Shown here in pieces: positions 4,041-59,414 of a stretch of 64,000 nucleotides of DNA. The DNA is from Escherichia phage vB_EcoM_TU01, in sequence record MZ560701. One strand, written 5' to 3'. Position 1 is the stretch's first letter, and every line of letters starts with the position of its first letter. The notes beneath the pieces are model-generated. The model did not search any database. It was not told the DNA's origin and saw nothing but the letters and a program-made list of their open reading frames with translations. The translations under genes and the position numbers were made by a program.

Positions 4041-4081
4041 CCGTACGGCCTTCTCTTGGTGAGAACATTCTAATTTTTATT

Positions 4082-4378
4082 ATGAGTATTGGCATGGGAT
4101 TTGCCTTTGGATTAGTTGGATTTCTTATTGACGGCGTTGTGTTAGGATTTATAGGGAACACTGGTGGATTCACAGACCAATGGCAGGACTTACGGTATAC
4201 CCAAGCCTTTGCATCCATCGCATCATTTTGTACTGTAGTCTATTTTTACTACGATTTTATAAACCATAACAAGAAAAATAAAAAGGTTTACGCTTCTCAA
4301 ATGATTAGTTATAATGAACTCCTAGCTAGACGTGAAAATGAAACAATCGAAAACTTTATTAAGGAATGTAGAAAATGA
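4082..4378 (+). CDS. hypothetical membrane protein (98 aa)
   Basis: Hydrophobic N-terminal half; ORF. Confidence 0.5.
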   Translation: MSIGMGFAFGLVGFLIDGVVLGFIGNTGGFTDQWQDLRYTQAFASIASFCTVVYFYYDFINHNKKNKKVYASQMISYNELLARRENETIENFIKECRK

Positions 4379-7783: not shown

Positions 7784-8274
7784 TGATTAACAAAACATAT
7801 TGGTCTAATATAGACGATGGCAATGAAGGTATTTCATACTATTCAGTAGATTGGACAGGATGTCCATCCTACTTAGTGAAACATATTTGCCAAGAATTTA
7901 AAATCGACCAGCCAGCAGGTATTATCGTGAACAGATACATTAATGGATATCAACCTATCGATGAAGTAATACGAACAACTCAAGCTGAGCTTGAAANGTT
8001 TTTCAATAAGTGCCAATGGATAACAGGATGGATTATATTTGTACCGTCTATATGGTTTTTCAGTACTAAGGTGAGTTCTTTCGGTTTTGTTGATATTATT
8101 GCTATCTTATTAGCATCTAGTATCATAAGTGTTGTTGGTGGCATCATTGGCGGCGGTACTGCAGCCATCATTATTAATCTTGTTAAAAGTAGTTTACAGG
8201 AACGTAAAGACAAGATAAANGCCAAGAATAATGAAGTTGAACGTTTTATTACCGAATGCAGGAATTTGAGATGA
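7783..8274 (+). CDS. hypothetical membrane protein (163 aa)
   Basis: Hydrophobic core segments; start overlaps upstream stop. Confidence 0.5.
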   Translation: MINKTYWSNIDDGNEGISYYSVDWTGCPSYLVKHICQEFKIDQPAGIIVNRYINGYQPIDEVIRTTQAELEXFFNKCQWITGWIIFVPSIWFFSTKVSSFGFVDIIAILLASSIISVVGGIIGGGTAAIIINLVKSSLQERKDKIXAKNNEVERFITECRNLR

Positions 8275-8507
8275 GTATAGCAATTTACATTAAATCAGAA
8301 TCATGTGATAGTTATCTGTACACATACGATAAAGATGTGTCAGAAGAAAAAATCAAAGACGACCTTAATATGGACCTTGATTTGTTCCGTCCTATTGCAG
8401 ATTACAAACTTGCGGTCTCTAATAGTGAAAGTCCATCTAAAGAAACGCGCATTGAAGAATTTATGTCCAAATTAATGGCCAAATCATGGGACCGAGATGA
8501 TGAGTAA
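8271..8507 (+). CDS. hypothetical protein (78 aa)
   Basis: ATG 8271 overlapping upstream stop. Confidence 0.45.
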   Translation: MSIAIYIKSESCDSYLYTYDKDVSEEKIKDDLNMDLDLFRPIADYKLAVSNSESPSKETRIEEFMSKLMAKSWDRDDE

Positions 8508-8955
8508 GAAAAATAAAGTGAAAGAACTATCAGCCGGTATTATTTTCCTTACCGAAGATAAAGAATTATTCATGGGGCGTGTAACTGGTTCTCGTCCTAA
8601 AGGTTCTTTAGCTCATCGGTGGGATATTCCTAAAGGTCGTGTCGAGCCCGGTGAATCTCCTATCGAAGCCGCTATTCGTGAATGCGAAGAAGAAACTGGG
8701 TTTACACAATACGACCCTGCCTTCCTGAAAGACCTAGGTGAACATCATTACTCAGACAATAAGAATATTCATCTGTTCCTATATACCATCCCTGTAGAGC
8801 ACGAGCAATTCAGAAACAGTGTTTGTAATTCCTATCATACGTTCCCAGACGGACGACAGATTCCTGAATTTGATGCATTCGCTTTAATTAAACCTTCTCA
8901 ATGGGAATATGTAATGGGCAAATCATTATATAAGGTGCTCACTACCCTCCTATAA
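8497..8955 (+). CDS. nudE: Nudix hydrolase
   Basis: Nudix box GRVEPGESPIEAAIRECEEETGF; sits immediately upstream of lysozyme as in T4. Confidence 0.85.
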   Translation: MMSKKNKVKELSAGIIFLTEDKELFMGRVTGSRPKGSLAHRWDIPKGRVEPGESPIEAAIRECEEETGFTQYDPAFLKDLGEHHYSDNKNIHLFLYTIPVEHEQFRNSVCNSYHTFPDGRQIPEFDAFALIKPSQWEYVMGKSLYKVLTTLL

Positions 8956-26940: not shown

Positions 26941-27111
26941 ATGCAAGTTAAATTATTGTACCGTTTATTAAAAAATGGCAAACATGATTGGTATTTGCTT
27001 ATTAAAACCGATCCGAATTTTTTCTCTGGACAACCATTTACAGTTCGTCCTACTAAACGTCAGCTTCGCAAAGCTAAACGTTCTCATCGTAACTTTTATA
27101 GAGGATATTGA
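26941..27111 (+). CDS. small basic protein, RPTKRQ-tail family copy 1
   Basis: C-terminal TVRPTKRQLRKAKRSHRNFY shared with 27536 and 55512 ORFs. Confidence 0.5.
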   Translation: MQVKLLYRLLKNGKHDWYLLIKTDPNFFSGQPFTVRPTKRQLRKAKRSHRNFYRGY

Positions 27112-27535: not shown

Positions 27536-27715
27536 ATGAAAACTGCATTATTTTTTGGCGAAAGAACAAACGGTCAAAAATCTTGGAAATTTGTTATAAT
27601 TGGTGCTCCAAACAATCCGAACATGAGGACTTCAATCATTTCGGTAACACGTCCTACTAAAAGAATGATTCGTCAATATAAACGTTTTCATCGAGACTTT
27701 TATAACGTTTACTAA
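27536..27715 (+). CDS. small basic protein, RPTKRQ-tail family copy 2
   Basis: C-terminal VTRPTKRMIRQYKRFHRDFY. Confidence 0.5.
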   Translation: MKTALFFGERTNGQKSWKFVIIGAPNNPNMRTSIISVTRPTKRMIRQYKRFHRDFYNVY

Positions 27716-44878: not shown

Positions 44879-45514
44879 ATGAAAACTACTCCTATTACTA
44901 TCGCTATTGACGCAATCATAAAACAAGCTTCTTCTTTGGCCGCTATGGCCAAAGTAATTAGTCAAAACCCTGCTCGTTATAATGCTATTCTAGAAACTCT
45001 TCGACGCCCAGGACTTAGNAATTANGAAAGCCGAGTAATTATTACAGGTGTTGGTAAGAATGCTAATATTGCAACTAAAGCTTCTGAGACATTTGCTTCA
45101 CTCGGTATCCCGAGTATGTACTTGAACACCGGGCATTATTCTCACGGTGATGCAGGATTCATTGCGCCTAATGATGTGTTGATTCATATTAGTCGTTCTG
45201 GTAAAACTGAAGAAATGATAGGCGTTGCTAAGCATCTTAAAATGATTCGTCCGAACGTCAAACAGATTCTGTTGCATTGTAACCCAGACATTCCACAAGA
45301 AAATGAAGCCCTTTTTGATTACTCTTTCTGTACAGGCATCGCAGTAGAGGTTGATGAGAATTCTCTGGCTCCGACTATGTCCACTACATTGTTGTTAGCG
45401 CTTATCGATACTTTTGCTATCAACCTTTCGTCTGAGCGTGGATTTACCTCTAATGACTTCCTTAAGTTCCACCCTGGTGGTGCACTAGGTGCCATGTTAC
45501 GAGGCGAACAATGA
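44879..45514 (+). CDS. SIS-domain sugar-phosphate isomerase (arabinose-5-phosphate isomerase KdsD/GutQ-like, no CBS domains)
   Basis: ITGVGKN...HGDAG...SRSGKTEE...APTMSTT...FHPGGALG parallel the E. coli KdsD SIS domain. Confidence 0.8.
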   Translation: MKTTPITIAIDAIIKQASSLAAMAKVISQNPARYNAILETLRRPGLXNXESRVIITGVGKNANIATKASETFASLGIPSMYLNTGHYSHGDAGFIAPNDVLIHISRSGKTEEMIGVAKHLKMIRPNVKQILLHCNPDIPQENEALFDYSFCTGIAVEVDENSLAPTMSTTLLLALIDTFAINLSSERGFTSNDFLKFHPGGALGAMLRGEQ

Positions 45515-45654
45515 AAGCAATAACAATAGGACTTTTACTATTGATGCTTGTCATGACTATCTACTGGAGCTTAACGGCTCCAGTAATGATTCCAACACTT
45601 GTAATTGGATGGATTATGATTGGACTACAAGCAAAGTATGAATGCTTTAACTAG
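45511..45654 (+). CDS. small membrane peptide (47 aa)
   Basis: Hydrophobic ORF overlapping upstream stop. Confidence 0.35.
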   Translation: MKAITIGLLLLMLVMTIYWSLTAPVMIPTLVIGWIMIGLQAKYECFN

Positions 45655-45695
45655 AATAGTGTACAATACTCCTACTTACCAATGAGGACNNCAAC

Positions 45696-47381
45696 ATGAA
45701 AAAAGCTGTTATTCTTGGTGCTGGACTGGCAACTCGTTTGTATCCAATAACGCATCATATTCCTAAGGTGCTTGTTAACTATAAACAAGACACTATTCTG
45801 AGCAATTTGTATACAATTTATTCTGACCTTGGCGCAGATGAAATTATTGTAGTAGTTCATTCAAAATTTGCTGAAACTGTTCGAGCTTATTGTGAGCAAG
45901 AAGGGTTCAATGTGACTATTCGTACAGTTGATGAAGCGTATGGTTCTGCTTATGCTCTTGCTAAATTACACAAAGATTTAGACGGCCATAATGTAATTGT
46001 TAACTGGTGTGATATTATTCCTGATTTTGGTTCATGGTCTTGGAATGTTAACGCAATCTATGTTAAGGGTGATGAATGTCGATATAATTTCGACGGTGAA
46101 AATATCACTAACGTAGGTTCAACAGGTGGTAATGTTGTAGGAATTTATCAGTTCAAAGACTGGGAATTCTATATGGGTTCTACTGATGAGGAAATTCATG
46201 AATACTGCAAAGGACGTGATTTCGTAGAATTCCTTTACGGCAGCGCATTCAATAAATCAGAGCTTATGAATCTAATTGATTTAGGTGATATGCCTAAACT
46301 TGAAAAAGCTCATGAAGTTCGTGAACTTAATCGTAGTTTTAATGCAGTTGAAATTGGTGAAGAAACTGTAACTAAATTCGCATTAACCGAACAGGGTCGA
46401 GCTCTTCAGAAAGATGAGATTTCATGGTATCTTAAAGTGAAATCAGATTCAGTTCCTCAGTTAGTTTCTGTTAATGAAAATAACTTTGAAATGGAACGCA
46501 TTAAAGGTAAGCCGGCATTTGAATATATTAAATCCAAATCGAGTCTTGCTCGTCCACAAATTGTTGATGCAATTTTAGATGCACTGAAATTCAGCACAGA
46601 CACTTATTTTGTAAGTCCTGAAACTGTTCGTCGTGATTTCACTAAAGAATTCTATACGAAAGTTATTGATCGTTGTGAAAGTATTCAACCATTGATTGAT
46701 TCATTTGGTAAAATCACACATGTGAACTACACTAAGATTGGACGTCTGAAGCCAATGCTGAAACAAGCTTTAGAACACCTTATTCGTTATCATAACCGTT
46801 CTCAGGGACAGTACTCTGTTATTCATGGCGACCCGAACTTCAGTAATACTATGATTACTGATAACGGCGAAGTCAAGTTTATCGACCCTCGTGGATATTT
46901 TGGTGAAACCAAGATTTACGGGCCAAAATTGTACGATGAAGCTAAAGTGCTTTATGCTGTTTCAGGTTATGATGAATTCAACGCTAATCCGACCTGGGGA
47001 CAGTTTACTATTGACGAAACAACTTGTAATGTGACTATTAACATCAATCCATTAATTTACAAATATGGAAAGCTGAGTTCGTTTAACGAGTATCATCATT
47101 TGGCCGTAGCAATTATCTGGATTGCATTAGGTGGTTATTTCAAGAATAATCCACTTAAAGCGGTAGCCGCATATTATAAAGGTATGGAACTTCTGACTAA
47201 GCAATTACGTAACATGGGCCGTGTACTTCAAGACGGCTCTATTAGTTATGACGTAGCAGAACCTGTAACGGCTACTCTGATTACAAAAAATCCTGGTAAA
47301 TGGGTACTAACTGATAAAGAAACTGGTGTTTCCTATCGTCCAATCGGTGGCGATATCACTCATCAATGGGAACGAATCTAA
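45696..47381 (+). CDS. bifunctional sugar-1-phosphate nucleotidyltransferase / APH-ChoK-like kinase
   Basis: N-terminal ILGAGLATRL (GxGTRL sugar-NTase motif); C-terminal HGDPNFSN...KFIDP (kinase catalytic loop). Confidence 0.75.
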   Translation: MKKAVILGAGLATRLYPITHHIPKVLVNYKQDTILSNLYTIYSDLGADEIIVVVHSKFAETVRAYCEQEGFNVTIRTVDEAYGSAYALAKLHKDLDGHNVIVNWCDIIPDFGSWSWNVNAIYVKGDECRYNFDGENITNVGSTGGNVVGIYQFKDWEFYMGSTDEEIHEYCKGRDFVEFLYGSAFNKSELMNLIDLGDMPKLEKAHEVRELNRSFNAVEIGEETVTKFALTEQGRALQKDEISWYLKVKSDSVPQLVSVNENNFEMERIKGKPAFEYIKSKSSLARPQIVDAILDALKFSTDTYFVSPETVRRDFTKEFYTKVIDRCESIQPLIDSFGKITHVNYTKIGRLKPMLKQALEHLIRYHNRSQGQYSVIHGDPNFSNTMITDNGEVKFIDPRGYFGETKIYGPKLYDEAKVLYAVSGYDEFNANPTWGQFTIDETTCNVTININPLIYKYGKLSSFNEYHHLAVAIIWIALGGYFKNNPLKAVAAYYKGMELLTKQLRNMGRVLQDGSISYDVAEPVTATLITKNPGKWVLTDKETGVSYRPIGGDITHQWERI

Positions 47382-47767
47382 TGCACCGTGTAGAAAACAT
47401 GCTTAATCTTTGTTTTGATGTCGATGATTGTATAACAGAGTGGAATAACAATCGTGATTACGTGAACTTCAAGCCGGACGTCGAAATGGTGAATGCCATT
47501 AATGCCCTGTATGATGCAGGGCACACAATAACGCTTTACACTGCTCGCGGTATGAAGTCAGTAGGTCCTGGTCGTATAGCAATTGACATTCTCCCAAGTC
47601 TTATTCAGAACTTGGCAAACATTGGCTTGAAGTACCATAATTTGCTAACACATAAACCAGTATATGATTGGATTATCGACGACAAAGCTATGCGTCCTGA
47701 CGAATTCAAAGCTCTTATGAATAAAGGCGAATTCGAAACATTTAAATCATATAAACCGAATCTATAA
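47380..47767 (+). CDS. HAD-family phosphatase
   Basis: DxDx motif CFDVDDCIT near N-terminus; small KdsC-like size. Confidence 0.65.
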
Positions 47768-47821
47768 TAATTTAAGTAAGACCTGCAAAAACCATCGCAT
47801 CAATTAACGCGAGATGCAAAA

Positions 47822-48982
47822 ATGAATACTTTTAAAATCGGAACGAATTTTGATTTAGCTCTTCTTGATAAAATCGTAGAGCTCAATAAAACTTATCCTA
47901 ATAGCTTGATAAACGAAGTATATGGCTCTACAAGAGAAATGGCTTTTGTAGCAGCCAGACCTGATTTTAGGCTTCCTGACGTTGACAAAAAGATGTTAGA
48001 AGATTACGTTAAACGTTGTAACGAATTAGGTATTTGCTTTAACTATACACTCAACACGATAAATCCTGGTTCAAAAAGAGAACTAGTTGAGTGGAAGAAG
48101 AAAGCTATTCAGGACTATGTTCAGTATCTTTGGTCAATAGGCGTATGGCGTATTACTATCGCTAACCCTGTTGTTATGGAAATTGTTCGTGAAGTCAATA
48201 AAGACATTGAGATTGAAGTTTCAACAATTTTACATGTCGATGCTGTAACTCAAATCAAATACTTACATGACCAGTATAATATCAAAAAGGTCTGCTGTGG
48301 AATTCATAAGAACCGTTCAGTTTCTTTCCTGAAGCGTGCAGCAGAGTTTTGCAATAAGAACAATATAATATTTGAAGTTCTTGTAAATGAGTTCTGTTCT
48401 AATGCTGGTAAAGGGTATACAACACATTGTAGCTATCGTGACTCTTGCTATATTTTCCATAGTACTGATGTTACAGCTGATGATGCTAAATCCTTAAATG
48501 GATATCCTATGCAGCACTGTATTAAAGCTCGTGATACAGACCCATTTAACTGGTTGAGAACTCGTTTTGTTCGTCCACAAGATTTGAAACTTTATAATGA
48601 TATTGGTATCACTCAATTTAAAGTTTCGGGACGTACAGGTAGCACCGACTACATTTTGAAAGTTCTTGAAGCTTATGCTTCTGAAAAGTTTGAAGGTAAT
48701 TTGTTGGAATTGTGGAAGCCTTTAGAGACCATTTTCACTCTTGAAAATGAGACCGAGTTTTCACATACGGTAAATATTGAAACCTCTTTGTTAGACGGCT
48801 TTTTAGAAAAAAGGTGGTTCAGACATCCGGATTTCGATTGTGCTAATGAAATCTGCGGGACGACGTGTACATATTGTGAAAGATATTATAAACGTCAGTT
48901 ATCTAAAAATGGGTTATCAGAAAATTCTATATCTATTATTGATATAACTAACTCTGACGACGCTTTGAGGTACCCAGAATGA
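47822..48982 (+). CDS. Cys-rich enzyme of unknown function (386 aa)
   Basis: Long ORF; Cys clusters EFCSNAGKGYTTHCSYRDSC and CANEICGTTCTYC. Confidence 0.6.
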   Translation: MNTFKIGTNFDLALLDKIVELNKTYPNSLINEVYGSTREMAFVAARPDFRLPDVDKKMLEDYVKRCNELGICFNYTLNTINPGSKRELVEWKKKAIQDYVQYLWSIGVWRITIANPVVMEIVREVNKDIEIEVSTILHVDAVTQIKYLHDQYNIKKVCCGIHKNRSVSFLKRAAEFCNKNNIIFEVLVNEFCSNAGKGYTTHCSYRDSCYIFHSTDVTADDAKSLNGYPMQHCIKARDTDPFNWLRTRFVRPQDLKLYNDIGITQFKVSGRTGSTDYILKVLEAYASEKFEGNLLELWKPLETIFTLENETEFSHTVNIETSLLDGFLEKRWFRHPDFDCANEICGTTCTYCERYYKRQLSKNGLSENSISIIDITNSDDALRYPE

Positions 48983-49216
48983 TTTCTAGAAAAACTTTTA
49001 ACCACCAACTTAATGAAGAGATTTTGACTATAAAAATTAACAGCAACGAACAAATTCTTAAAAAGGCCCTTATGGGCCTGTTTGAAACTAAAGCGGCTAA
49101 AGCGATTAAAGAAACCTGTTCAACTAGAATACTATGCCGACGCATTCCTTCATAGTGTCCTTGGAAGTATTGATGCCGAAGCTCTACGTTATATCAACAT
49201 CGCTAAGAAATTCAAA

Positions 49217-49242
49217 TAAGCTTTATGAATTGAGTATATAAT
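49217..49242 (+). promoter_or_regulatory. middle-type promoter (GCTTTA, 11 nt, TATAAT)
   Basis: Upstream of gene 42. Confidence 0.45.
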
Positions 49243-49261
49243 AAACTGTATTGAGGTAAAC

Positions 49262-49978
49262 ATGGGAAAACATAACACAATGAAATATATTAAAGCCGCA
49301 GATTTTCAATCCGCATTTAAAGCTGTCAATCGTGAAATTTTAGAAAACCCAGAATTCGTAACTGATTCTCGTATTGGACGTTGTAATGAAATTGGGTCTA
49401 TGACAGTAGTTGTTGACACTCCATCATCATTCAAAATGACCGACCCACGTATTAACCGCATCTCTTATGAATATGCCGAAGATTTCTGGAAATTTATGAT
49501 TTCTGGCGGNACTGANGCAGAAGAAGCATTTAAGGCATATCCTAATGTCGCTAAATTTATTTCTAAACCAAAATCAGACGCTTTGCCTGCGAACTTCAAC
49601 ACTTTCTATGGTCCTCGCATTGCGGCCCAATTACCAGCTCTTCTAAAAGAACTTAAAGAGAAGCCTAACTCTCGAAGAGTTGTGTTCCAAATTCTTGAAA
49701 GTTCTGATCAGGCTTTGCTTGATTCGGACGAAACGCTTGAATATCCATGTACTGACTCAGTGACTTATTATATTCGTGATGGTAAGCTTTATACCCACTG
49801 TCATATGCGTTCCCAGAACTGTGCTGTTGTTATGCAGTTGGATTTTTATCTCCAAGGAAAATTACTTCATTATATCGCTAAAGAATGCGGTGTAGAAGTT
49901 GGTGATTATACTCATACCATGGTAAGTGCCCATGTGTTTGAACGTGATTTTGATTATGTTAAAGGATTCCTTGACTAA
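49262..49978 (+). CDS. 42: dCMP hydroxymethylase (thymidylate-synthase fold)
   Basis: Syntenic with T4 gene 42; candidate nucleophile in EYPCTDSVTYY; diverged from T4. Confidence 0.75.
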   Translation: MGKHNTMKYIKAADFQSAFKAVNREILENPEFVTDSRIGRCNEIGSMTVVVDTPSSFKMTDPRINRISYEYAEDFWKFMISGXTXAEEAFKAYPNVAKFISKPKSDALPANFNTFYGPRIAAQLPALLKELKEKPNSRRVVFQILESSDQALLDSDETLEYPCTDSVTYYIRDGKLYTHCHMRSQNCAVVMQLDFYLQGKLLHYIAKECGVEVGDYTHTMVSAHVFERDFDYVKGFLD

Positions 49979-50877
49979 TGGCTATTTTCCGCGTACCTAT
50001 CTTGAGTATGCGGTCTTATGAAACCGGACAGTATGCTATCCTTAAGGATGGCAACTTCCAACTTCATTTGCACCGTGCTAATCCGGGTGATGTGATTACA
50101 TATCCACGTAATGCATCTGATATTAAAGAATGTGAACGTCTTTTCCCAGAATTTAAGTTTGTTCCATTATGGTATAAAGATAACGCGTATAACACTCGTA
50201 AATATTTCTGGTCTGAAAATGAATTTGTGGTTGATTCATTAATTGCTTATTATGATTGTGATTTTCTAATCACAGATATCACTGGATATGACGGAGCTTT
50301 TGATGTAGAATTCAATTTCAATATCACTGCAGACCCTAATAAACCACGTTTTTATATTGACGAATTCTTAAAAACCGACATGTTGTCGGTTAATCGTTCA
50401 CTTCAAACTACTGTGTTGAATGAACGTCAAAAAGAAGTGCTGGTTAACGCTGGTGCAGATGGTAATAAGATTATCGTAACCCAGAAAGTTATACGTCCTT
50501 CCATCATGCAGCGTCTTGTAGGTGATTTGGCTCCTATTCATCTAGATGGTATTTTTCATCCATTTCGAATTAGTGACCCGTGCTATCGTTTTGAACAAGT
50601 GGTTGAATGTGCAATTCAATTAGGTCAACCGCTTTATGTAACCGATCCAAATAATAGTTTCGATAGAAATAAGTATCCTGAAGAAGCGCTGATTCGAATT
50701 TTTAAACCAACTAAAACTGAGTACTATCAAATTCTTAAAGGACGGCCGAAGATTCAATATTTCGAAAATCCTGAAGAAGTATTCCATCCAGGTCTTGGCG
50801 AGTTCATCTACTTTAATGCTTTAATTTCTTCACCGTATAATATACCTAAATACGAAGATGTCGTAATCGAGGAATAA
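49978..50877 (+). CDS. hypothetical protein at the beta-glucosyltransferase position (candidate DNA sugar transferase)
   Basis: 299 aa ORF directly after gene 42; no similarity to T4 beta-gt recognised. Confidence 0.5.
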   Translation: MAIFRVPILSMRSYETGQYAILKDGNFQLHLHRANPGDVITYPRNASDIKECERLFPEFKFVPLWYKDNAYNTRKYFWSENEFVVDSLIAYYDCDFLITDITGYDGAFDVEFNFNITADPNKPRFYIDEFLKTDMLSVNRSLQTTVLNERQKEVLVNAGADGNKIIVTQKVIRPSIMQRLVGDLAPIHLDGIFHPFRISDPCYRFEQVVECAIQLGQPLYVTDPNNSFDRNKYPEEALIRIFKPTKTEYYQILKGRPKIQYFENPEEVFHPGLGEFIYFNALISSPYNIPKYEDVVIEE

Positions 50878-50878
50878 A

Positions 50879-51427
50879 ATGGCTAAAATTATTTTAGTAG
50901 ATGGCCCGGATAATGCTGGTAAAACAACTTTCATTAATGATATAATGGAAATTAGTGAAAGATATGTAAAGATTGATTTCCCTAAACGAACAGTTGATGG
51001 ACGTTTCGATGTTAAGTCTCGAAATGAAGTTGGCTGTTTCGAAACGATGTTGAATTATTTAGACCCTACTAAGATTTATCTGTTAGACCGTGGATATATT
51101 AGTAACTGGGTTTATGGACGTATTCGACAAGATGCGGACTCGGTTCTTGACGTTTATGAACAGGATTATGTTCGTCTTTGCCAAAACCATGATGTGTTCA
51201 CAATTATTTTAACACGTAACGAAATGACTGAAAGTTTTGAAGACGACCTTATTACTTTGTCTTCATTCGGTTTTAATACAGTCATTTCACATTTTGAAGA
51301 GTTTGCAATTCATAACAAAATCCAAACGTATCAATTACTTAATCATGATGGTGCTAACAAAGTTATAGGATTTAATGCAAGCGAACGTAATTATTTGATT
51401 ACAGAAATTATCAAATGGGCTCGTTAA
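50879..51427 (+). CDS. P-loop kinase-like protein
   Basis: Walker A GPDNAGKTT at N-terminus; 182 aa. Confidence 0.55.
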   Translation: MAKIILVDGPDNAGKTTFINDIMEISERYVKIDFPKRTVDGRFDVKSRNEVGCFETMLNYLDPTKIYLLDRGYISNWVYGRIRQDADSVLDVYEQDYVRLCQNHDVFTIILTRNEMTESFEDDLITLSSFGFNTVISHFEEFAIHNKIQTYQLLNHDGANKVIGFNASERNYLITEIIKWAR

Positions 51428-51527: not shown

Positions 51528-52700
51528 ATGTCTGATTTAAAATCTCGTCTGATTAAAGCTTCTACTTCTAAAATGACTGCAGACTTGACTAAGTCTAAGC
51601 TGTTTAATAATCGTGATGAAGTCCCTACTCGTATTCCGATGTTGAATATTGCATTAGGTGGTGCACTGAATGCCGGGTTGCAATCAGGCTTAACTATTTT
51701 TGCTGCTCCTTCTAAACACTTTAAAACGTTGTTTGGACTGACCATGGTTGCAGCATATATGAAGAAATATAAAGATGCAATTTGTTTGTTCTATGATTCA
51801 GAATTTGGTGCTTCAGAATCTTATTTTCGTTCAATGGGTGTTGATTTAGACCGTGTAGTTCATACTCCGATTCAATCTGTCGAACAACTTAAAGTTGATA
51901 TGACTAATCAGCTTGACGCGATTGAACGTGGTGATAAAGTTATTATCTTTATCGATTCAATCGGTAATACTGCATCTAAGAAAGAAACTGAAGATGCGTT
52001 GAACGAGAAAGTTGTAGGTGATATGTCTCGTGCTAAGGCACTTAAATCTCTGTTCCGCATTGTGACTCCTTATCTGACTATTAAAGATATTCCATGTGTT
52101 GCAATCAACCATACAGCAATGGAAATCGGCGGACTATATCCTAAAGAGATTATGGGCGGTGGTACAGGTATTCTTTACTCTGCTAACACTGTATTCTTTA
52201 TCTCTAAACGTCAGGTTAAAGAAGGTACAGAATTGACCGGNTANGANTTCACGTTGAAAGCAGAAAAATCTCGTACAGTTAAAGAGAAATCTACTTTCCC
52301 GATCACGGTTAATTTTGATGGCGGTATTGACCCATTCAGTGGCTTGTTAGAAATGGCAACTGAAATTGGTTTTGTAGTTAAGCCTAAAGCCGGTTGGTAC
52401 GCTCGCGAATTCCTTGACGAAGAAACAGGCGAAATGATTCGTGAAGAAAAATCATGGCGTGCTAAAGCTACTGATTGTGTAGAATTCTGGGGACCATTGT
52501 TTAAACACAAACCTTTCCGAGATGCAATTGAAACTAAATATAAACTAGGTGCTATCTCTTCTATTAAAGAAGTTGATGACGCTGTTAATGACCTTATTAA
52601 TTGCAAAGCAACAACTAAAGTTCCGGTTAAAACTTCTGATGCTCCGTCTGCAGCAGATATAGAAAACGACCTTGACGAAATGGAAGATTTCGATGAATAA
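51528..52700 (+). CDS. uvsX: UvsX recombinase (RecA-like)
   Basis: 390 aa; matches T4 UvsX. Confidence 0.95.
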   Translation: MSDLKSRLIKASTSKMTADLTKSKLFNNRDEVPTRIPMLNIALGGALNAGLQSGLTIFAAPSKHFKTLFGLTMVAAYMKKYKDAICLFYDSEFGASESYFRSMGVDLDRVVHTPIQSVEQLKVDMTNQLDAIERGDKVIIFIDSIGNTASKKETEDALNEKVVGDMSRAKALKSLFRIVTPYLTIKDIPCVAINHTAMEIGGLYPKEIMGGGTGILYSANTVFFISKRQVKEGTELTXXXFTLKAEKSRTVKEKSTFPITVNFDGGIDPFSGLLEMATEIGFVVKPKAGWYAREFLDEETGEMIREEKSWRAKATDCVEFWGPLFKHKPFRDAIETKYKLGAISSIKEVDDAVNDLINCKATTKVPVKTSDAPSAADIENDLDEMEDFDE

Positions 52701-53034
52701 TCTCGATGATTTAAATCTAGAAATCGTTGATGAATCCCCTTCTTCGGAAGGGGAAGACATTCGCAAAGAACGAGTGTTTAATGAATCTCTTAAAATTGTC
52801 CGTTCAGCAATGGAAAATGTCATTCAAGAGATTCTGATTACGCTTGAAGATGGTTCTCATCATATAGTCTATATTACAAAACTAGACTGGGTTGATGGTA
52901 AAATCGTAATGGACTTTGCAGTTCTTGACCAGGACAGAAAAGCAGAACTTGCACCACATGTTGAAAAATGTGTTACAATGCAAGTACAACAAGCTTTTAA
53001 TGAACGGACCAAGAAAAAATTTAAATTCTTTTAA
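52693..53034 (+). CDS. gp40-like protein (head vertex assembly chaperone position)
   Basis: 113 aa ORF between uvsX and 41 as in T4. Confidence 0.45.
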   Translation: MNNLDDLNLEIVDESPSSEGEDIRKERVFNESLKIVRSAMENVIQEILITLEDGSHHIVYITKLDWVDGKIVMDFAVLDQDRKAELAPHVEKCVTMQVQQAFNERTKKKFKFF

Positions 53035-53043
53035 GGAGTTATC

Positions 53044-54486
53044 GTGGTAGAAATTATTTTGTCTCATCTAGTATATGACCAGGCTTATTTTTCTAAGGTC
53101 TGGCCTTATATGGATTCTGAGTATTTTGAGCGTGGACCGGCAAAAAACGTCTTTAAAATTATAAAGAGCCACGTTAACGAATATAATGCAATGCCATCTA
53201 TCAACGCGTTAAAGGTGGCTTTAGATAACAGTTCTTTAACTGAAGCCGAATATAAAGGAACTTCAGACCTAATTGAAAAATTGGCTGATACTCCTGAAGA
53301 CCACGAATGGTTGGTTAAAGAAACTGAGAAATATGTCCAGCAAAAAGCGATGTATAATGCTACATCCAAAATCATTGAGATTCAGTCTAATGCTGAACTA
53401 CCTCCAGAACAACGTAACAAGAAAATGCCTGACGTAGGAGCTATTCCTGATATTATGCGTCAAGCACTTTCAATTTCGTTTGATAGTTATGTTGGACATG
53501 ACTGGATGGAAGACTACGAAGCACGCTGGCTTTCTTATCTGAACAAAGCACGTAAGGTCCCGTTCAAATTAAACATTCTGAATAAAATCACTAAAGGCGG
53601 TGCAGAAACAGGTACACTGAACGTTTTAATGGCCGGTGTTAACGTCGGTAAATCTTTAGGCCTTTGTTCACTTGCTGCAGATTATCTTCAAACAGGTCAT
53701 AATGTTCTTTATATTTCCATGGAAATGGCCGAAGAAGTTTGCGCTAAGCGTATAGATGCAAACATGCTTGACGTATCACTTGACGATATTGATGATGGTA
53801 ACGTATCTTATGCTGAATATAAAGCCAAGATGGAAAAATGGCGTTCAAAAACAACATTAGGACGTTTAGTAGTTAAACAGTATCCTACTGGTGGAGCTAA
53901 TGCTAATACATTCCGTGCATTGCTTAATGAATTGAAACTCAAGAAGAACTTTGTGCCATCTGTAATCATGGTTGATTACTTAGGTATTTGTGGGTCTTGT
54001 CGTATCAGAGTTTACACTGAAAATAGTTACACATTAGTTAAAGCTATCGCAGAAGAACTTCGTGCATTAGCAGTAGAATCTGAAACAGTTCTATGGACTG
54101 CAGCTCAAGTAGGACGTGCAGCATGGGATGCTTCGGATATGAACATGAGCGATATTGCAGAATCAGCAGGTTTACCAGCAACGGCGGATTTCATGTTGGC
54201 CGTAATTGAAACAGAAGAACTTGCACAAGCTGAACAACAACTTATCAAACAAATCAAATCACGATACGGTGATAAGAATAAGTGGAATAAATTCCTGATG
54301 GGTGTACGTAAAGGCAACCAGAAATGGATTGAGATTGAGCAAGAAGGCATGAACACACCTAACACAGTAAATGAAAACGCAGGTGCTCAGATGCGTCAGG
54401 CAGAGGTGAATCGTACGGAACGCGTAGGTAAAGCCAAAACAACACGTGCTGACCTAGATAGCTTAGCCAATGAGTTAAAATTTTAA
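53044..54486 (+). CDS. 41: replicative DNA helicase gp41
   Basis: GTG start; MVEIILSHL...; Walker A GVNVGKS; matches T4 gp41. Confidence 0.95.
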   Translation: MVEIILSHLVYDQAYFSKVWPYMDSEYFERGPAKNVFKIIKSHVNEYNAMPSINALKVALDNSSLTEAEYKGTSDLIEKLADTPEDHEWLVKETEKYVQQKAMYNATSKIIEIQSNAELPPEQRNKKMPDVGAIPDIMRQALSISFDSYVGHDWMEDYEARWLSYLNKARKVPFKLNILNKITKGGAETGTLNVLMAGVNVGKSLGLCSLAADYLQTGHNVLYISMEMAEEVCAKRIDANMLDVSLDDIDDGNVSYAEYKAKMEKWRSKTTLGRLVVKQYPTGGANANTFRALLNELKLKKNFVPSVIMVDYLGICGSCRIRVYTENSYTLVKAIAEELRALAVESETVLWTAAQVGRAAWDASDMNMSDIAESAGLPATADFMLAVIETEELAQAEQQLIKQIKSRYGDKNKWNKFLMGVRKGNQKWIEIEQEGMNTPNTVNENAGAQMRQAEVNRTERVGKAKTTRADLDSLANELKF

Positions 54487-54492
54487 TAAAAA

Positions 54493-54512
54493 GGAGACTT
54501 CGGTCTCCTTTC
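54493..54512 (+). terminator. UUCG-tetraloop hairpin after gene 41
   Basis: ggagac-ttcg-gtctcc then tttcgggg. Confidence 0.45.
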
Positions 54513-54574
54513 GGGGTTTACATCTTCCTCTAGGCATGATATGATGTACTTACACCAACCAAGAGGAAAACATT

Positions 54575-54949
54575 ATGAATATGTCTCAAGCAATTTTTAC
54601 TGCAATCACCGAAAACACAACTGTTGAAGTAGTTTCTCCGCTGGCAACCTACGTTATTCTTGCTCCTAAAACTATTGTATCTCGTATGGAAAACATGGGC
54701 AAACGTATCGTACAAATTGTTGGAGCCGGAAATCAAAAACTTGATTATCTGCGAACCATCAAAGCTTATGAACATTTCCAACTCGAAAAAGGTTCTCCTA
54801 TCCAGGTAGAACTCGTAAATGGTGATATCGTTCGAGCAATGTTCCATCATTTCTATGCATTGAATGACCCATCTAAAGCGGTTCGTTTAATTGCATATGA
54901 CGCAAACCAAAACGAAATCAACGCAGATATATCTAAATTACGTTTTTAA
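54575..54949 (+). CDS. hypothetical protein (124 aa)
   Basis: ORF with agagga RBS. Confidence 0.5.
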   Translation: MNMSQAIFTAITENTTVEVVSPLATYVILAPKTIVSRMENMGKRIVQIVGAGNQKLDYLRTIKAYEHFQLEKGSPIQVELVNGDIVRAMFHHFYALNDPSKAVRLIAYDANQNEINADISKLRF

Positions 54950-54978
54950 GTTTACTTCTCCAGTAGTTGTGTTATTAT
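54950..54978 (+). promoter_or_regulatory. early promoter
   Basis: GTTTAC, 17 nt, TATTAT then AGACCTATCAA. Confidence 0.55.
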
Positions 54979-55004
54979 AGACCTATCAACTACTGGAGAA
55001 CAAA

Positions 55005-55322
55005 ATGAAAACCATCGATTGTAAAGCAGAATTTAAGATTTTTTATCACGGTTCAAGTAGTTCAGCTAACATCGAAAACATGCTTTGTCCTCCTGAAGAA
55101 ACAGGAGTTCTGTCTGAAACTGGACGTAAGAAAAACTTGGATCGTGTGTTCTTTACTGAAGATATCGGTTTAGCAAAGATTTATGCAGGACGAGCAGCAC
55201 GCTCTTATGGAGGTGAACCACGACTCTATCGAGTAATTTCTCCGGTAGACGTAGTTCAAATGAATAATACTAAAGGTGCTACAGTTTATCACGCTGAATG
55301 GGCATTTTGCGAGGAAATATGA
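55005..55322 (+). CDS. hypothetical protein (105 aa)
   Basis: ORF. Confidence 0.5.
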   Translation: MKTIDCKAEFKIFYHGSSSSANIENMLCPPEETGVLSETGRKKNLDRVFFTEDIGLAKIYAGRAARSYGGEPRLYRVISPVDVVQMNNTKGATVYHAEWAFCEEI

Positions 55323-55510
55323 GCAAATTAACTAAAGTTACTTTTATCGGTTGGTTTAAAAGCGGTGAGATGTTCACTAAAGATATCATGTTATCAGGTG
55401 ATCGCGAAGAAATCGAGTGGGTTACGGTACAACTTGCTGAAGTGAACAAAGCATTAGTTAAAGCATTTGTTAATGACGAGAAAGTTTTTGAAGCTGATTT
55501 CAGAGGATAA
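55319..55510 (+). CDS. hypothetical protein (63 aa)
   Basis: ORF. Confidence 0.45.
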   Translation: MSKLTKVTFIGWFKSGEMFTKDIMLSGDREEIEWVTVQLAEVNKALVKAFVNDEKVFEADFRG

Positions 55511-55511
55511 T

Positions 55512-55724
55512 ATGTATTCAACTGTGTTTAAACCATCAACATACGAATTTGCATCAACTACACAATGGAAAGCTCTTATTCTGGAAGGATGGGAACTAAT
55601 GATGGATTGTGAAGCATCTGAAAAGTTTCCACACGGCAAAGTGGACTTCGTTAAATTTGCTGTACGTCCGACTAAACGACAGATTCGTCAAGAAAAACGC
55701 AAATTTCGCAAAAGTTTAAAATAA
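55512..55724 (+). CDS. small basic protein, RPTKRQ-tail family copy 3
   Basis: C-terminal AVRPTKRQIRQEKRKFRKSLK. Confidence 0.5.
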   Translation: MYSTVFKPSTYEFASTTQWKALILEGWELMMDCEASEKFPHGKVDFVKFAVRPTKRQIRQEKRKFRKSLK

Positions 55725-55726
55725 CT

Positions 55727-55756
55727 GTTTACAAGCACCACATACTGTGTTACTAT
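55727..55756 (+). promoter_or_regulatory. early promoter
   Basis: GTTTAC, 18 nt, TACTAT. Confidence 0.5.
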
Positions 55757-55784
55757 CTTTCTATCAACTACAGAGGAAATTGAA

Positions 55785-56153
55785 ATGAAAAAATTAATCG
55801 CTTTAGCAATGGTATTTGGATTAACCGGATGTGGTGCCCATGGCTTTATCCCTAATAACGTTGGCCAACTGATTTACAATCCGAATGTTAAACAGTATGA
55901 CCAACCTAAAGTTGAAGTGGAAGACCCGGTTACTGTAGGTAATCGAATGATTCAAGCTGATGCACATGCTCAACGTTATCGTGATTCTGATACTGTAGCA
56001 TTGTCAAAAGAACAACGCGTTAAAGAACATTGTCTACAGGCTACTGAAATCGCATTCATTCGCTATGTTGAAACAACTGGTAAAGAGCCTACCCAGAAAC
56101 AAATCGCGAATAACTACGTCCAGTGTATTGAACGTTTAAACAAATTTAATTAA
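55785..56153 (+). CDS. lipoprotein
   Basis: Signal peptide with lipobox LTGC (MKKLIALAMVFGLTGC). Confidence 0.65.
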   Translation: MKKLIALAMVFGLTGCGAHGFIPNNVGQLIYNPNVKQYDQPKVEVEDPVTVGNRMIQADAHAQRYRDSDTVALSKEQRVKEHCLQATEIAFIRYVETTGKEPTQKQIANNYVQCIERLNKFN

Positions 56154-56214
56154 TTGGTTTACGCCAAAGTTAAAACAAGATATTATAAACATAACAAATC
56201 AAGAGGAAATTAAC

Positions 56215-56463
56215 ATGGAATTATTCGTAGCTAGTTCAGTAGCGGTTTTAATTGCAGGTATTGGTTCAATCATCATTTACATGTTGCCTTGGGTAATCGC
56301 ACTTATTCGTGGCACAAAAAGCACAACAGCAATCTTCTTTGTATCTTTACTCTTTAACTGGACGATGGTTGGTTGGATTGGAACTTTAATTTGGTCTATC
56401 GTTGCCGAAAAGAAATCTGCTCAGCAGCCTCAACAAGTAATTATTATTCGCGAAAAAGAATAA
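56215..56463 (+). CDS. membrane protein (2 TM)
   Basis: Two long hydrophobic segments. Confidence 0.55.
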   Translation: MELFVASSVAVLIAGIGSIIIYMLPWVIALIRGTKSTTAIFFVSLLFNWTMVGWIGTLIWSIVAEKKSAQQPQQVIIIREKE

Positions 56464-56467
56464 ACTT

Positions 56468-56497
56468 GTTTACATTATAGATGGACTATAGTATAGT
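56468..56497 (+). promoter_or_regulatory. early promoter
   Basis: GTTTAC, 18 nt, TATAGT then AGTCCTATCAA. Confidence 0.5.
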
Positions 56498-56526
56498 AGT
56501 CCTATCAAATCAACTAAGGAGTTAAA

Positions 56527-56820
56527 ATGAAAAAGTTATCATTGGCAGCAATCTTACTTGCAGTATCATGTGCACCAGCTCCAGTTACGGCAGGTTATGA
56601 TAAAGACCTCTGTGAGTGGTCAATGACTGCAAATCAAGAAGATGTTGAACAACAAATCTTCTCTGATATCATGAACATCACTAAACGAGACCGTCCTAAT
56701 ATGGTTAATAAAGTTGTTGAACAACTTAAGTCTGGCGGTATCATGCAGTACAATTATGTTTTGTATTGTGACCCTAATTTCGATAACAAAGATATCGTAA
56801 CCGAAATCACAGGTGAATAA
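56527..56820 (+). CDS. secreted protein (97 aa)
   Basis: Signal peptide MKKLSLAAILLAVSCAPAPVTA. Confidence 0.55.
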   Translation: MKKLSLAAILLAVSCAPAPVTAGYDKDLCEWSMTANQEDVEQQIFSDIMNITKRDRPNMVNKVVEQLKSGGIMQYNYVLYCDPNFDNKDIVTEITGE

Positions 56821-56821
56821 T

Positions 56822-57472
56822 ATGATTTATTATATGCACAAAAATGCGCCATTTAAATATGGTAAATTTCCTAATGCACAATGTTATAATATAACGCCGA
56901 ATGAAAATAATAACGGATACCATATTGGTGTAATTTTTGTAATTGTTAAAGATAACGAAATCGTTGCCTGGGCAGATTTTAAAGGTACAACATATGATGT
57001 TAATCCAGTGCCTTTCACATATTACAACATAATGGATTTGGCATATGATTATAACTGGTTTAATCATGACGCGTTGGCTCATATTGAAGGTGTAGGATTT
57101 GACATCTCTTATTCTAGCTATTCATTATGTCCTATGAGCCGAGCTCACGGTAAAGATGCATCATATCTTTCAATTCGGAAACGTGTAAACTTCAAACGTA
57201 GCACAGAGTATGTTGGTGGACTCTTTGTTAAAGATAATAAAATAACCCGTATTAGTTATCCTTTAAGTGTAGGTCAAAAAGATGTTGATGTTGATTTAGA
57301 CTTAACCGAAAATAACATTAATCATATTGCTTCTGTATATTTTGATATCGATGAAAAAATTGTAGTGTGTGGATACGAATTACCACCTGAAGAAAAGGCT
57401 GAAGCAATTGAAGTCGAATTAGAAATTTCTGTTGATGACCAAATATTTAATGCATTTATGAATCGAGGTTAA
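56822..57472 (+). CDS. hypothetical protein (216 aa)
   Basis: ATG 56822; ORF. Confidence 0.5.
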   Translation: MIYYMHKNAPFKYGKFPNAQCYNITPNENNNGYHIGVIFVIVKDNEIVAWADFKGTTYDVNPVPFTYYNIMDLAYDYNWFNHDALAHIEGVGFDISYSSYSLCPMSRAHGKDASYLSIRKRVNFKRSTEYVGGLFVKDNKITRISYPLSVGQKDVDVDLDLTENNINHIASVYFDIDEKIVVCGYELPPEEKAEAIEVELEISVDDQIFNAFMNRG

Positions 57473-57473
57473 A

Positions 57474-57671
57474 ATGACTACTGCAATTTGCACTGGTTCT
57501 AAAATTAGTGTTTTTACAAGTTTTGAAGATTATGAAGTTGTTTCAAAACACCAATACCATATTAGCGTAAAAGCTAATGACGGTGTAATTTGGAATATTC
57601 CGCAGTATGAAGGCACTACATATGAAGTCACAGATATAAATGGTGACAAAGCAATCTTTGTAATTGATTAA
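57474..57671 (+). CDS. hypothetical protein (65 aa)
   Basis: ORF. Confidence 0.45.
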   Translation: MTTAICTGSKISVFTSFEDYEVVSKHQYHISVKANDGVIWNIPQYEGTTYEVTDINGDKAIFVID

Positions 57672-57690
57672 ATATACTCAGGAGGTACCT

Positions 57691-58158
57691 ATGGGTATTA
57701 TTAACACTGCAATAGATTCTGTTTATGCATATAAGTTTATTAGACTAATGCAAAAACCTTTTACCGAATGGAAAGCGTACGAAGCCAAAATCATAGATGA
57801 ACGTGGAAGTGTTCTTAAACGTCCTTCTACTCCCGAAGAGAAAGCGGCGTATACACCTTTTCATGCTTCAGTTCGTTCAATGAAGCGAATGATGAGCACT
57901 GTTCCAGGTCTTAATGGAATGGCCTCAATGATGTCTGCCTGGAGTGCTGTAGCTTCACGCTATAACATTACGGAAGAACAACAGAAAGAAATATTTAAAG
58001 AACTCCCTTTATTTGAGGATATGGTTGCTGGTGATTCAGGCGGTANTCCTCAAGCTATTGCATCAGGAACAACTACAGGTGCAGTCGTAAATAAAGGTCC
58101 AGAACAAATTCCTTCCAAGAAAAGAAAGCGAATTAAAGTAAATATTAATAAGTTGTGA
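57691..58158 (+). CDS. hypothetical protein (155 aa)
   Basis: ATG 57691 after ggagg RBS. Confidence 0.5.
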   Translation: MGIINTAIDSVYAYKFIRLMQKPFTEWKAYEAKIIDERGSVLKRPSTPEEKAAYTPFHASVRSMKRMMSTVPGLNGMASMMSAWSAVASRYNITEEQQKEIFKELPLFEDMVAGDSGGXPQAIASGTTTGAVVNKGPEQIPSKKRKRIKVNINKL

Positions 58159-58197
58159 TATGATGGCCTTATTAATTTAAGGCCTCTGGAGAATACT

Positions 58198-59220
58198 ATG
58201 GCTGAATGGATAGATAATGAATTTGCTTATCGTGCGTTTTCTCACCTACCTCGTTTTAGACAAATCAATAATTCAAGCACATTTAAATTAACATTTCGAT
58301 GTCCAGTTTGTGGCGACTCCCAGACAGATGCAATGAAAGCTCGCGGATGGTATTATGGCGGTACTCCTGGTAATGTACATTGCTATAATTGCCAATACCA
58401 CAATACAATTTCCGGATACTTAAAAGAGTATGATGAAGAGCTTTATCGCGAATATCTAATGGAAGTTCGTAAAGAAAAAGCTAGAATGGAACCAAAGATT
58501 GAAAAGGTTCCTGAACATAAACCAGAACCGGAGAAAAAGACTATAAATTCTTTGCCGTCTTGTTCTCGTCTGGACAAGCTGCCTGAAGAGCATCCTATTG
58601 TGAAATATGTTAAGACTCGATGCATTCCTAAAGAATCATGGAACAGATTATGGTTCACATTAGAATGGCCCAAATTGGTCAACAAGATTCAACCTGGTAC
58701 GTATAAGAAAGAGATTCCCGAACCACGTTTAGTGATTCCTATTTTTAATAAAGATGGGAAGGCTGAGTCATTCCAAGGACGTGCACTTCGTAAAGATGCT
58801 CCTCAGAAATATATCACTATTAAAGCGTTTGAGTCTGCAACAAAAATTTATGGTGTTGAACGTGTTAAGGAAGGAGACGTCTGGGTAATGGAAGGCCCTA
58901 TTGATAGTTTATTCATACCCAATGCAATCGCTATTACAGGCGGCTCAATAGATTTAGATGTGGTACCATTTAAAGAACGTCGTGTATGGGTAATGGATAA
59001 TGAACCTAGGCATCCGGATACTATAGCTCGCATGAAGCGATTAGTTGATGCAGGCGAACGTGTCATGTTCTGGGACCGAGCTCCATGGAGATCAAAGGAT
59101 GTGAATGATATGGTAATGAAAGAAAATGCAACACCACAAGAAATTTTAGAATATATGAAACAGAATATTTCAAGTGGGTTGCATGCTAAAATGAGATTAT
59201 CTCGTTATTCGAAGATTTAA
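58198..59220 (+). CDS. 61: DNA primase gp61
   Basis: Zinc-binding CPVCGDS...CYNC N-terminus, Toprim-like core; 340 aa. Confidence 0.9.
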   Translation: MAEWIDNEFAYRAFSHLPRFRQINNSSTFKLTFRCPVCGDSQTDAMKARGWYYGGTPGNVHCYNCQYHNTISGYLKEYDEELYREYLMEVRKEKARMEPKIEKVPEHKPEPEKKTINSLPSCSRLDKLPEEHPIVKYVKTRCIPKESWNRLWFTLEWPKLVNKIQPGTYKKEIPEPRLVIPIFNKDGKAESFQGRALRKDAPQKYITIKAFESATKIYGVERVKEGDVWVMEGPIDSLFIPNAIAITGGSIDLDVVPFKERRVWVMDNEPRHPDTIARMKRLVDAGERVMFWDRAPWRSKDVNDMVMKENATPQEILEYMKQNISSGLHAKMRLSRYSKI

Positions 59221-59414
59221 ACAAGCCCTATAATAGCAAAGGCCAAATCAACTACAGTATCCAATGGAACAGAAGGAACCATAACACCATTAGCAACTAA
59301 CAATGGTGCAATCCCGAAGTTCCATGAAATAATGCCACCTACAACTATTGCAGCGATAGCAGTTTTCTTTTTATTGCCTTTAATAGCGTTGATTAACGAT
59401 GGAAGTTTAAACAT
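59217..59414 (-). CDS. small membrane protein on the opposite strand (65 aa, 2 TM)
   Basis: Minus-strand ORF with strong aaggagat RBS 5 nt before ATG; no + strand ORF occupies this interval. Confidence 0.55.
   Translation of the reverse strand: MFKLPSLINAIKGNKKKTAIAAIVVGGIISWNFGIAPLLVANGVMVPSVPLDTVVDLAFAIIGLV

Follow-up and report, generated by a model that had tools for sequence, protein, structure and literature searches.

We analysed a stretch of 64,000 nucleotides (nt) from Escherichia phage vB_EcoM_TU01 (record MZ560701; hereafter the window), focusing on the interval between the replicative helicase gene 41 and the primase gene 61. This interval measures 3.7 kb from the stop of gene 41 to the start of gene 61 and contains ten open reading frames (ORFs) on the plus strand, the outer limits of which (54575 and 58158) had been given exactly in the initial annotation of this DNA. 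All ten ORFs matched PHROG families (E values from 1e-29 to 1e-131), and none of them is therefore a chance ORF. The genes of this island are the following (aa, amino acids):

54575..54949, plus strand: ORF124 (RB69ORF041c), Mosigvirus-restricted protein, 100% identical in RB69
55005..55322, plus strand: ORF105 (RB69ORF040c), 105-aa predicted minimal ADP-ribosyltransferase-fold protein, first cistron of the dmd-tifA operon
55319..55510, plus strand: dmd (61.5), antitoxin-like inhibitor of the RnlA/LsoA RNase toxins (Pfam PF17587, E 6e-22)
55512..55724, plus strand: tifA (61.4), ToxN inhibitor (Pfam DUF7279, PF23945, E 3.5e-20)
55785..56153, plus strand: imm.1, predicted lipoprotein accompanying imm (Pfam DUF5481, E 3.7e-9)
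56215..56463, plus strand: imm, inner-membrane superinfection immunity protein (Pfam PF14373, E 1.8e-15)
56527..56820, plus strand: sp (61.3), Spackle, periplasmic gp5 tail lysozyme inhibitor (Pfam PF25676, E 1e-42)
56822..57472, plus strand: adfA (61.2), anti-DarT1 factor A, with its start at 56822 or 56834 (Pfam PF23813, E 3e-120)
57474..57671, plus strand: ORF65 (RB69ORF033c), small acidic protein (phrog_3249, E 1e-32)
57691..58158, plus strand: 61.1, full-length 155-aa form (phrog_2086, E 5e-73; the C-terminus matches phrog_1823)

Seven of the ten ORFs have orthologues among the named genes of phage T4 (Dmd, TifA/61.4, Imm.1, Imm, Spackle, AdfA/61.2, and 61.1), with 32-75% identity between the proteins in pairwise BLASTP comparisons (E values from 1e-18 to 2e-100). 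Pfam matches above the gathering score were obtained for Dmd, DUF7279, DUF5481, Imm_superinfect, T4_Spackle, and AdfA. The T4 RefSeq record reads, in transcriptional order, 41-dmd-61.4-sp-61.2-61.1-61; the initial annotation was thus mistaken in recalling that 41 and 61 are adjacent in T4. The five genes shared with the T4 interval have the same position, strand, and order and encode proteins that are 57-75% identical, dmd and tifA being co-operonic behind an early promoter in both cases. The T4 interval is smaller (1.65 kb and five ORFs versus 3.7 kb and ten), since the window adds ORF124 and ORF105 before dmd, the imm.1-imm pair between tifA and sp, and ORF65. Only these three ORFs and the imm.1-imm cassette are therefore additional to the T4 set, and not ten inserted ORFs as first described. 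In addition, 61.1 is 155 aa long in the window versus 54 aa in T4, and the TifA of the window lacks the C-terminal extension of its T4 counterpart.

In phage RB69 (AY303349), gene content and order are the same as in the window from RB69ORF041c to 61.1 (RB69ORF041c, ORF040c, dmd, 61.4, imm.1, imm, sp, 61.2, ORF033c, ORF032c + 61.1), with TifA, ORF105, and ORF124 100% identical and AdfA 99% identical. The two intervals differ at residue 164 of AdfA (His in the window, Arg in RB69) and in 61.1, which is intact in the window and split into two ORFs in RB69. The same gene order was also found in an annotated relative of the window phage. Positions 53000-59300 of the window aligned over their full length (6.3 kb), with 98.6% DNA identity, to Escherichia phages JN02, NHEP29, GADS24, HX01, JS09, and others, and at least 80% of this query was covered at one place in 150 records. 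Judged by these sequence similarities, the phage is a Mosigvirus (RB69-like Tevenvirinae).

The larger size of the interval (3.7 kb and ten ORFs versus 1.65 kb and five in T4), the presence of ORF124 in Mosigvirus only, and the location of the T4 imm.1-imm cassette at another site could be explained if one lineage had recently acquired novel genes for anti-defence and envelope-targeted proteins by insertion between 41 and 61, taken to be normally adjacent. We nevertheless consider such an origin highly improbable. Five of the island genes lie at the same site in T4, and the T4 and RB69 records refute an insertion for the island as a whole, the entire arrangement being common to RB69 and about 150 sequenced relatives. 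The base composition revealed no discontinuity in guanine-cytosine content or in skew at the island borders. Furthermore, overlapping gene sets fill the 41-61 gap in other genera: an ORF105 homologue, dmd, a small ORF, 61.4, sp, two ORFs, and a short 61.1 in Dhakavirus QL01; an ORF105 homologue, sp, a 63-aa ORF, and a long 61.1 in Tegunavirus phiR1-RT; and 17 ORFs, including an ORF105 homologue and a long 61.1, in Acinetobacter phage Berthold (Lazarusvirus). To judge from these varied gene sets, the 41-61 interval behaves as a plastic accessory region across genera. The initial annotation had named as counter-evidence the recurrence of the same genes, with core functions, at this position of T-even genomes; the genes do recur in T4, RB69, Dhakavirus QL01, and partly in phiR1-RT, but their functions are accessory and not core.

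Three genes of the island, dmd, tifA, and adfA, are anti-defence genes by analogy with orthologues for which there is experimental backing. Dmd matched PF17587 over its full length (78 bits, cutoff 27), is 58% identical to T4 Dmd, and matched by sequence the solved structures PDB 5i8j (E 3e-37) and 5hy3_B (E 2e-18); Dmd inhibits the RnlA toxin (PMC9391042). The tifA gene lies directly downstream of dmd, which ends at 55510, and starts at 55512. Its product (DUF7279, 72 bits, cutoff 24.5) is 57% identical to T4 TifA and 100% identical to RB69 TifA. Both ToxN and RNA are bound by TifA, in which basic residues come after a conserved P-T motif (P53-T54 in RB69 TifA; PMC10853763). RB69 TifA, which lacks the T4 C-terminal extension, is a potent ToxN inhibitor, reportedly more so than that of T4 (PMC9391042, PMC10853763). 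In the window protein, the motif reads P53-T54-KRQIRQEKRKFRK, with the basic cluster after P-T, and it corresponds to the "RPTKRQ tail" of the initial annotation, which had correctly noted a third copy of this family in the island (55512-55724 by our analysis); all three copies belong to DUF7279. The other two copies (26941-27108 and 27536-27712) carry an R-P-T-K-R basic motif and flank the gene for PinA, a Lon protease inhibitor (PF10465). A 157-aa ORF just downstream of this DUF7279-PinA cluster is, by eye only, what we take to be gene 49 (endonuclease VII). The TifA papers (PMC9391042, PMC10853763) make no mention of TifA-like paralogues.

AdfA matched PF23813 over its full length (399.6 bits, cutoff 27) and is 66% identical to T4 gp61.2, gene 61.2 being adfA, which encodes a DarT inhibitor (PMC9391042). 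It is also 99% identical to RB69 AdfA, with His at residue 164 in the window and T4 (NNINHIAS) versus Arg in RB69 (NNINRIAS). RB69 AdfA with R164 does not associate with DarT1, while the R164H escape variant and the H164 alleles of T-even phages neutralise DarT1 (PMC11257639). The presence of H164 in the window protein thus leads us to predict that the phage resists DarTG1 through its AdfA.

By sequence, Imm and Spackle are the classical pair of superinfection-exclusion proteins of T-even phages, and the third envelope protein of the island is the Imm-linked lipoprotein Imm.1. The initial annotation had already recognised from the letters a lipoprotein with an LTGC lipobox (Imm.1), a protein with two transmembrane segments (Imm), and a secreted protein (Spackle), all of which are present, Spackle having a signal peptide. 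Imm (PF14373, 56.9 bits, cutoff 27.9) is 64% identical to T4 Imm; a Kyte-Doolittle scan located its hydrophobic segments at residues 1-34 and 40-59, and pairwise alignment indicated that the equivalents of T4 R33 and W50 are conserved. A 2026 preprint (10.64898/2026.03.06.709160) reports binding of Imm to the tape-measure protein gp29 and weaker exclusion with the R33A and W50A substitutions. Spackle matched PF25676 over its full length (145 bits, cutoff 27) and PDB 6x6o (E 1.4e-39), the mature chain 7cn6 aligning from residue 23. It is 66% identical to T4 Sp over 97 aa, with a hydrophobic export-signal segment at residues 4-24 and both mature disulfide Cys residues aligned with those of T4 Sp. 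T4 Spackle acts in the periplasm, where it inhibits the lysozyme domain of the tail protein gp5 (PMC7677548), and Spackle and Imm together give superinfection exclusion (PMC7677548, PMC7650644).

Imm.1 begins with MKKLIALAMVFGLTGC, in which the lipobox L13-T14-G15-C16 follows MKKLIALAMVFG and fits the pattern [LVI][ASTVI][GAS]C, so that the protein is a predicted lipoprotein modified at Cys16; the Kyte-Doolittle scan detected a single N-terminal hydrophobic segment. It shares 32% identity with T4 Imm.1, where LAGC aligns with the lipobox. The names "iduronate sulfatase" (RefSeq, Imm.1) and "DNA polymerase" (RefSeq, TifA) were rejected as spurious. In both T4 and the window, a lipoprotein gene precedes an imm gene of 82-83 aa, each with its own upstream promoter-like site, but this cassette lies between genes 43 and 42 in T4 and between tifA and sp in the window. 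The latter is the only imm copy of the window, the stretch from gene 43 (42127-44838) to uvsX, with seven ORFs at 44879-51427, having none. Thymidylate synthase, arabinose-5-phosphate isomerase, peptidase, and hypothetical genes are annotated in this 43-uvsX stretch in relatives. We presume that 44879-51427 is a module for arabinosyl-hydroxymethylcytosine DNA modification of the RB69 type, at the place taken up in T4 by imm, 42, and beta-gt.

The early promoter motif was scored as GTTTAC-N15-18-TAnnnT, which gave 26 sites in the window versus 3.7 expected from shuffles. One promoter-like site was located in each of the five intergenic gaps of the island, instead of the three early promoters counted in the initial annotation. 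These sites and two RNA hairpins are:

54490..54511, plus strand: stem-loop right after the gene 41 stop (GGAGAC-UUCG-GUCUCC core; fold -12.8 kcal/mol, z -3.3)
54516..54545, plus strand: early promoter-like site P1 (GTTTACA-N17-TATGAT, TG-extended; motif match), upstream of ORF124
54950..54978, plus strand: early promoter-like site P2 (GTTTACT-N16-TATTAT, TG-extended; motif match), for the ORF105-dmd-tifA unit
54956..55000, plus strand: 14-bp hairpin before ORF105 (-21.1 kcal/mol, z -6.0, none of 200 shuffles as stable)
55727..55756, plus strand: early promoter-like site P3 (motif match), upstream of imm.1
56157..56186, plus strand: early promoter-like site P4 (motif match), upstream of imm
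56468..56497, plus strand: early promoter-like site P5 (motif match), upstream of sp

The stem-loop after gene 41 is followed by UUUCGGGG and not by a long U run, and it may be terminator-like or RNA-stabilising. In the hairpin before ORF105, the 3' arm contains the Shine-Dalgarno sequence of this gene (GGAGA, 54995-54999) and the loop contains the -10 element of P2. In folding predictions, RNA starting at 54978 lacked the 5' arm of the hairpin and was unstructured. Read-through RNA from P1 would thus mask the ribosome-binding site of ORF105, and RNA initiated at P2 would allow its translation, a design also known from other T4 genes such as e. The hairpin in the imm-sp gap (within 56478-56530) was not clearly above shuffles (z -2.2, 6/200 as stable); the one in the gap between 61.1 and 61 (58162-58186) was stronger (z -3.1, 3/200 as stable).

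We consider it very likely that a conserved T-even early accessory island, dedicated to counter-defence and superinfection exclusion, occupies the interval in its Mosigvirus (RB69-type) form. The identities of its genes are established by orthology, and their mechanisms are transferred from the published T4 and RB69 orthologues. Five sigma-70-type early promoters would drive expression of the island as soon as infection begins, in five transcription units (ORF124; ORF105-dmd-tifA; imm.1; imm; and sp-adfA-ORF65-61.1, reading on into 61). In the cytoplasm, Dmd would bind and neutralise the RnlA/LsoA RNase toxins, TifA would bind ToxN and RNA and so neutralise the type III toxIN system, and AdfA, in its H164 form, would bind the DNA ADP-ribosyltransferase DarT1. 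In the inner membrane, Imm would bind the tape-measure protein gp29 of an incoming phage and block genome translocation, while periplasmic Spackle would inhibit the gp5 tail lysozyme; the lipoprotein Imm.1, which appears to move with imm as a cassette, would probably assist Imm. The phage is accordingly predicted to resist rnlAB/lsoAB and toxIN and also, through H164 AdfA and unlike laboratory RB69, darTG1.

Much of this was already established knowledge. Earlier publications cover the island and its position as well as what Dmd, TifA, AdfA, Imm, and Spackle do, and Srikant et al. (2022) proposed the 41-61 interval as an "anti-TA island" (TA, toxin-antitoxin) because it holds Dmd (anti-RnlA) and adfA (anti-DarT) among others (PMC9391042). 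The role in superinfection exclusion and anti-defence suggested by the initial annotation agrees with these orthologues, and we found no supporting evidence for the receptor masking that it also suggested. The observation of an island was thus partly confirmed and its interpretation partly supported.

Several points weigh against the counter-defence and exclusion interpretation. The functions proposed for the window proteins are borrowed from orthologues, and the promoter sites are consensus matches only. T4 AdfA showed no detectable phenotype against the tested DarTG1 (PMC11257639), which makes the prediction of activity from the allele uncertain. Imm.1, ORF124, ORF65, and 61.1 have no known role, so that a description in terms of two jobs may be incomplete; any roles of these four proteins and of ORF105 are conjectural and have to be set apart from the orthology-backed functions of the island. 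Finally, 61.1 is conserved beside the primase gene across Straboviridae and may be replication-related instead of accessory.

The latter point can be extended to ORF65 and 61.1 together: co-transcribed into gene 61, they could serve the primase or the replisome, and the island would then combine an anti-defence/exclusion module with a replication-linked one. Full-length 61.1 was present in 588 phage records across Straboviridae and lies directly upstream of the primase gene in the inspected genomes of Mosigvirus, Tegunavirus, and Acinetobacter Lazarusvirus; moreover, no promoter-like site was detected in the stretch from sp to 61, and the only hairpin there is that of the 61.1-61 gap. However, T4-type phages and Dhakavirus have retained only the C-terminal ~54 aa of 61.1, the T4 protein corresponding to the C-terminal third of the window protein (75% identity over 40 conserved aa). 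In the RB69 reference (8116-8582 of the extracted locus), a 1-nt deletion, GAGAAAGC to GAG-AAGC, splits the gene into ORF032c and 61.1. The short forms and this frameshift imply that 61.1 is dispensable for replication in the laboratory, and we find a replisome function of the pair unlikely. No domain or structural match was obtained for 61.1, and its GenBank/UniRef name "major capsid protein" was rejected as spurious. The RB69 homologue of 30.3 is also frameshifted (PMC11257639); considering the split 61.1, this second frameshift, and AdfA R164, the RB69 reference seems to carry several degraded accessory genes.

As for the two other small proteins, ORF65 has homologues in 262 phage records, which come from phages of Escherichia, Shigella, and Salmonella and from a few other T-even phages; identity was 40-100% among the matches listed. 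An exhaustive HMMER search with ORF124 recovered 4 relatives, one of which, a 3411-aa Ig-repeat adhesin, was judged to be a weak beta-rich similarity. The C-terminal half of ORF124 is predicted to form a small SH3/Tudor-like beta-barrel, a fold-level assignment from an AlphaFold2 (AF2) model of moderate quality.

The sole lead of the island that seems worth an experiment is ORF105, the gene with a predicted ADP-ribosyltransferase (ART) fold that heads the dmd-tifA operon and is widespread in Straboviridae. Its stop codon overlaps the dmd start (ATGA at 55319-55322). In T4, an early promoter sits just upstream of dmd (PMC9391042); its apparent counterpart in the window lies upstream of ORF105, which is thus the first cistron of the anti-toxin operon. 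The T4 41-61 interval contains no ORF105; in RB69, the sequence of RB69ORF040c is identical to it (100%). Homologues were found in 609 phage records, with 60-100% identity in all but nine, among T4-like phages of Escherichia, Klebsiella, Acinetobacter, and Aeromonas, and a Vibrio phage homologue is 34% identical; they occupy different accessory sites in different genera. The ORF105 profile obtained 452 matches in a set of 5.8 billion proteins, the best 120 of these 452 being close relatives.

Structure prediction indicates that ORF105 has an ART fold: the AF2 model was confident (pLDDT 86, pTM 0.77) and its closest folds were Tpt1, Arr, and AcrF11. In the alignment of 30 diverse members of the family, H15-G16, Y60, and E103 were invariant and F50 nearly so, and H15, Y60, and E103 fall on the expected secondary-structure elements of the model, which makes an H-Y-E site plausible. 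A 94-aa siphovirus protein named "Rifampin ADP-ribosyl transferase" was matched in BFVD with 39% identity, and some GenBank records name ORF105 "putative ADP-ribosyl transferase". Sequence searches detected little: nothing significant in Pfam, NCBIfam, and PADLOC scans, a chance match only when the profile was compared with PDB sequences, and sub-threshold matches of 3/30 relatives to Arr-ms (PF12120; best E 0.026). Compared with the H-Y-E clade ARTs (Arr, the NAD+ lobe of Tpt1/KptA, and AcrF11), ORF105 is smaller than all three at 105 aa, has no significant sequence match to any of them, and lacks the RNA-binding lobe of Tpt1.

ORF105 is most likely an NAD+-using ADP-ribosyltransferase that would modify a target of the host or of a defence system. 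We advance tentatively, and with less than even confidence, the proposal that it is an active minimal ART expressed immediately early as a new counter-defence or host-takeover effector. In this role it would neutralise a bacterial immunity protein by ADP-ribosylation, in analogy to AcrF11, or else modify a host RNA or translation target. If this is true, the conservation of ORF105 (63-100% identity) among T4-like phages infecting Enterobacteria, Acinetobacter, and Aeromonas would suggest that many hosts share its target. Alternatively, ORF105 could be an ART-fold decoy or binder without enzymatic activity, for example a mimic titrating an antitoxin, an NAD+/ADP-ribose-derived signal, or a DarT-type partner. 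It is indeed shorter than the chains of Arr (140 aa) and AcrF11 (137 aa), Phe50 replaces the first aromatic residue of the usual Y-x10-Y pair, ORF105 reaches the gathering score of no Pfam ART family, and its operon partners Dmd and TifA work by binding and not by catalysis (PMC9391042). However, the invariance of H15-G16, Y60, and E103 in 30 members from several host genera is the pattern expected of a working H-Y-E active site, and the nearest folds belong to Tpt1, Arr, and AcrF11, which are described as active enzymes that use NAD+. We consider a decoy rather unlikely.

We found no study of RB69ORF040c, 041c, or 033c in the literature on these ORFs or on ARTs in Straboviridae counter-defence. 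The accessible part of a survey by the Aravind group reports Arr-family ARTs in actinophages and in Sinorhizobium phage PBC5, and does not mention the ORF105 family. Scanning a genome collection with ORF105 gave 5 loci, of which at least 2 are on 167-178 kb contigs resembling mis-binned T4-like phage genomes; two other contigs among these matches to "bacterial genomes" are too short to judge. A 148-aa homologue with 47% identity and a 40-aa N-terminal extension is encoded on the Candidatus Kaiserbacteria chromosome OY969413 (extracted locus 3902-4348), next to a 347-aa ORF that looks by eye like a transposase of the insertion-sequence type.

The flanks of the island are formed by the following genes:

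53044..54486, plus strand: gene 41, replicative helicase, upstream flank (480-aa ORF; 41/DnaB-like helicase in matching Mosigvirus records)
58198..59220, plus strand: gene 61, primase, downstream flank (340-aa ORF; DNA primase in matching records)

Further neighbours of the interval, identified from ORF calls and annotations in a relative, are uvsX (51528-52700), 40, and 56. Ambiguous bases (N) occur singly throughout the window, 270 in total, including those at 58046 in 61.1 and 52241-52247 in uvsX, and several translations consequently contain X residues. On the minus strand, a very hydrophobic and basic 65-aa ORF with no Pfam match (RB69ORF029w, 59217-59414) shares 4 nt with the end of gene 61 and fills part of the gap between 61 and 56, the location of dam in T4.

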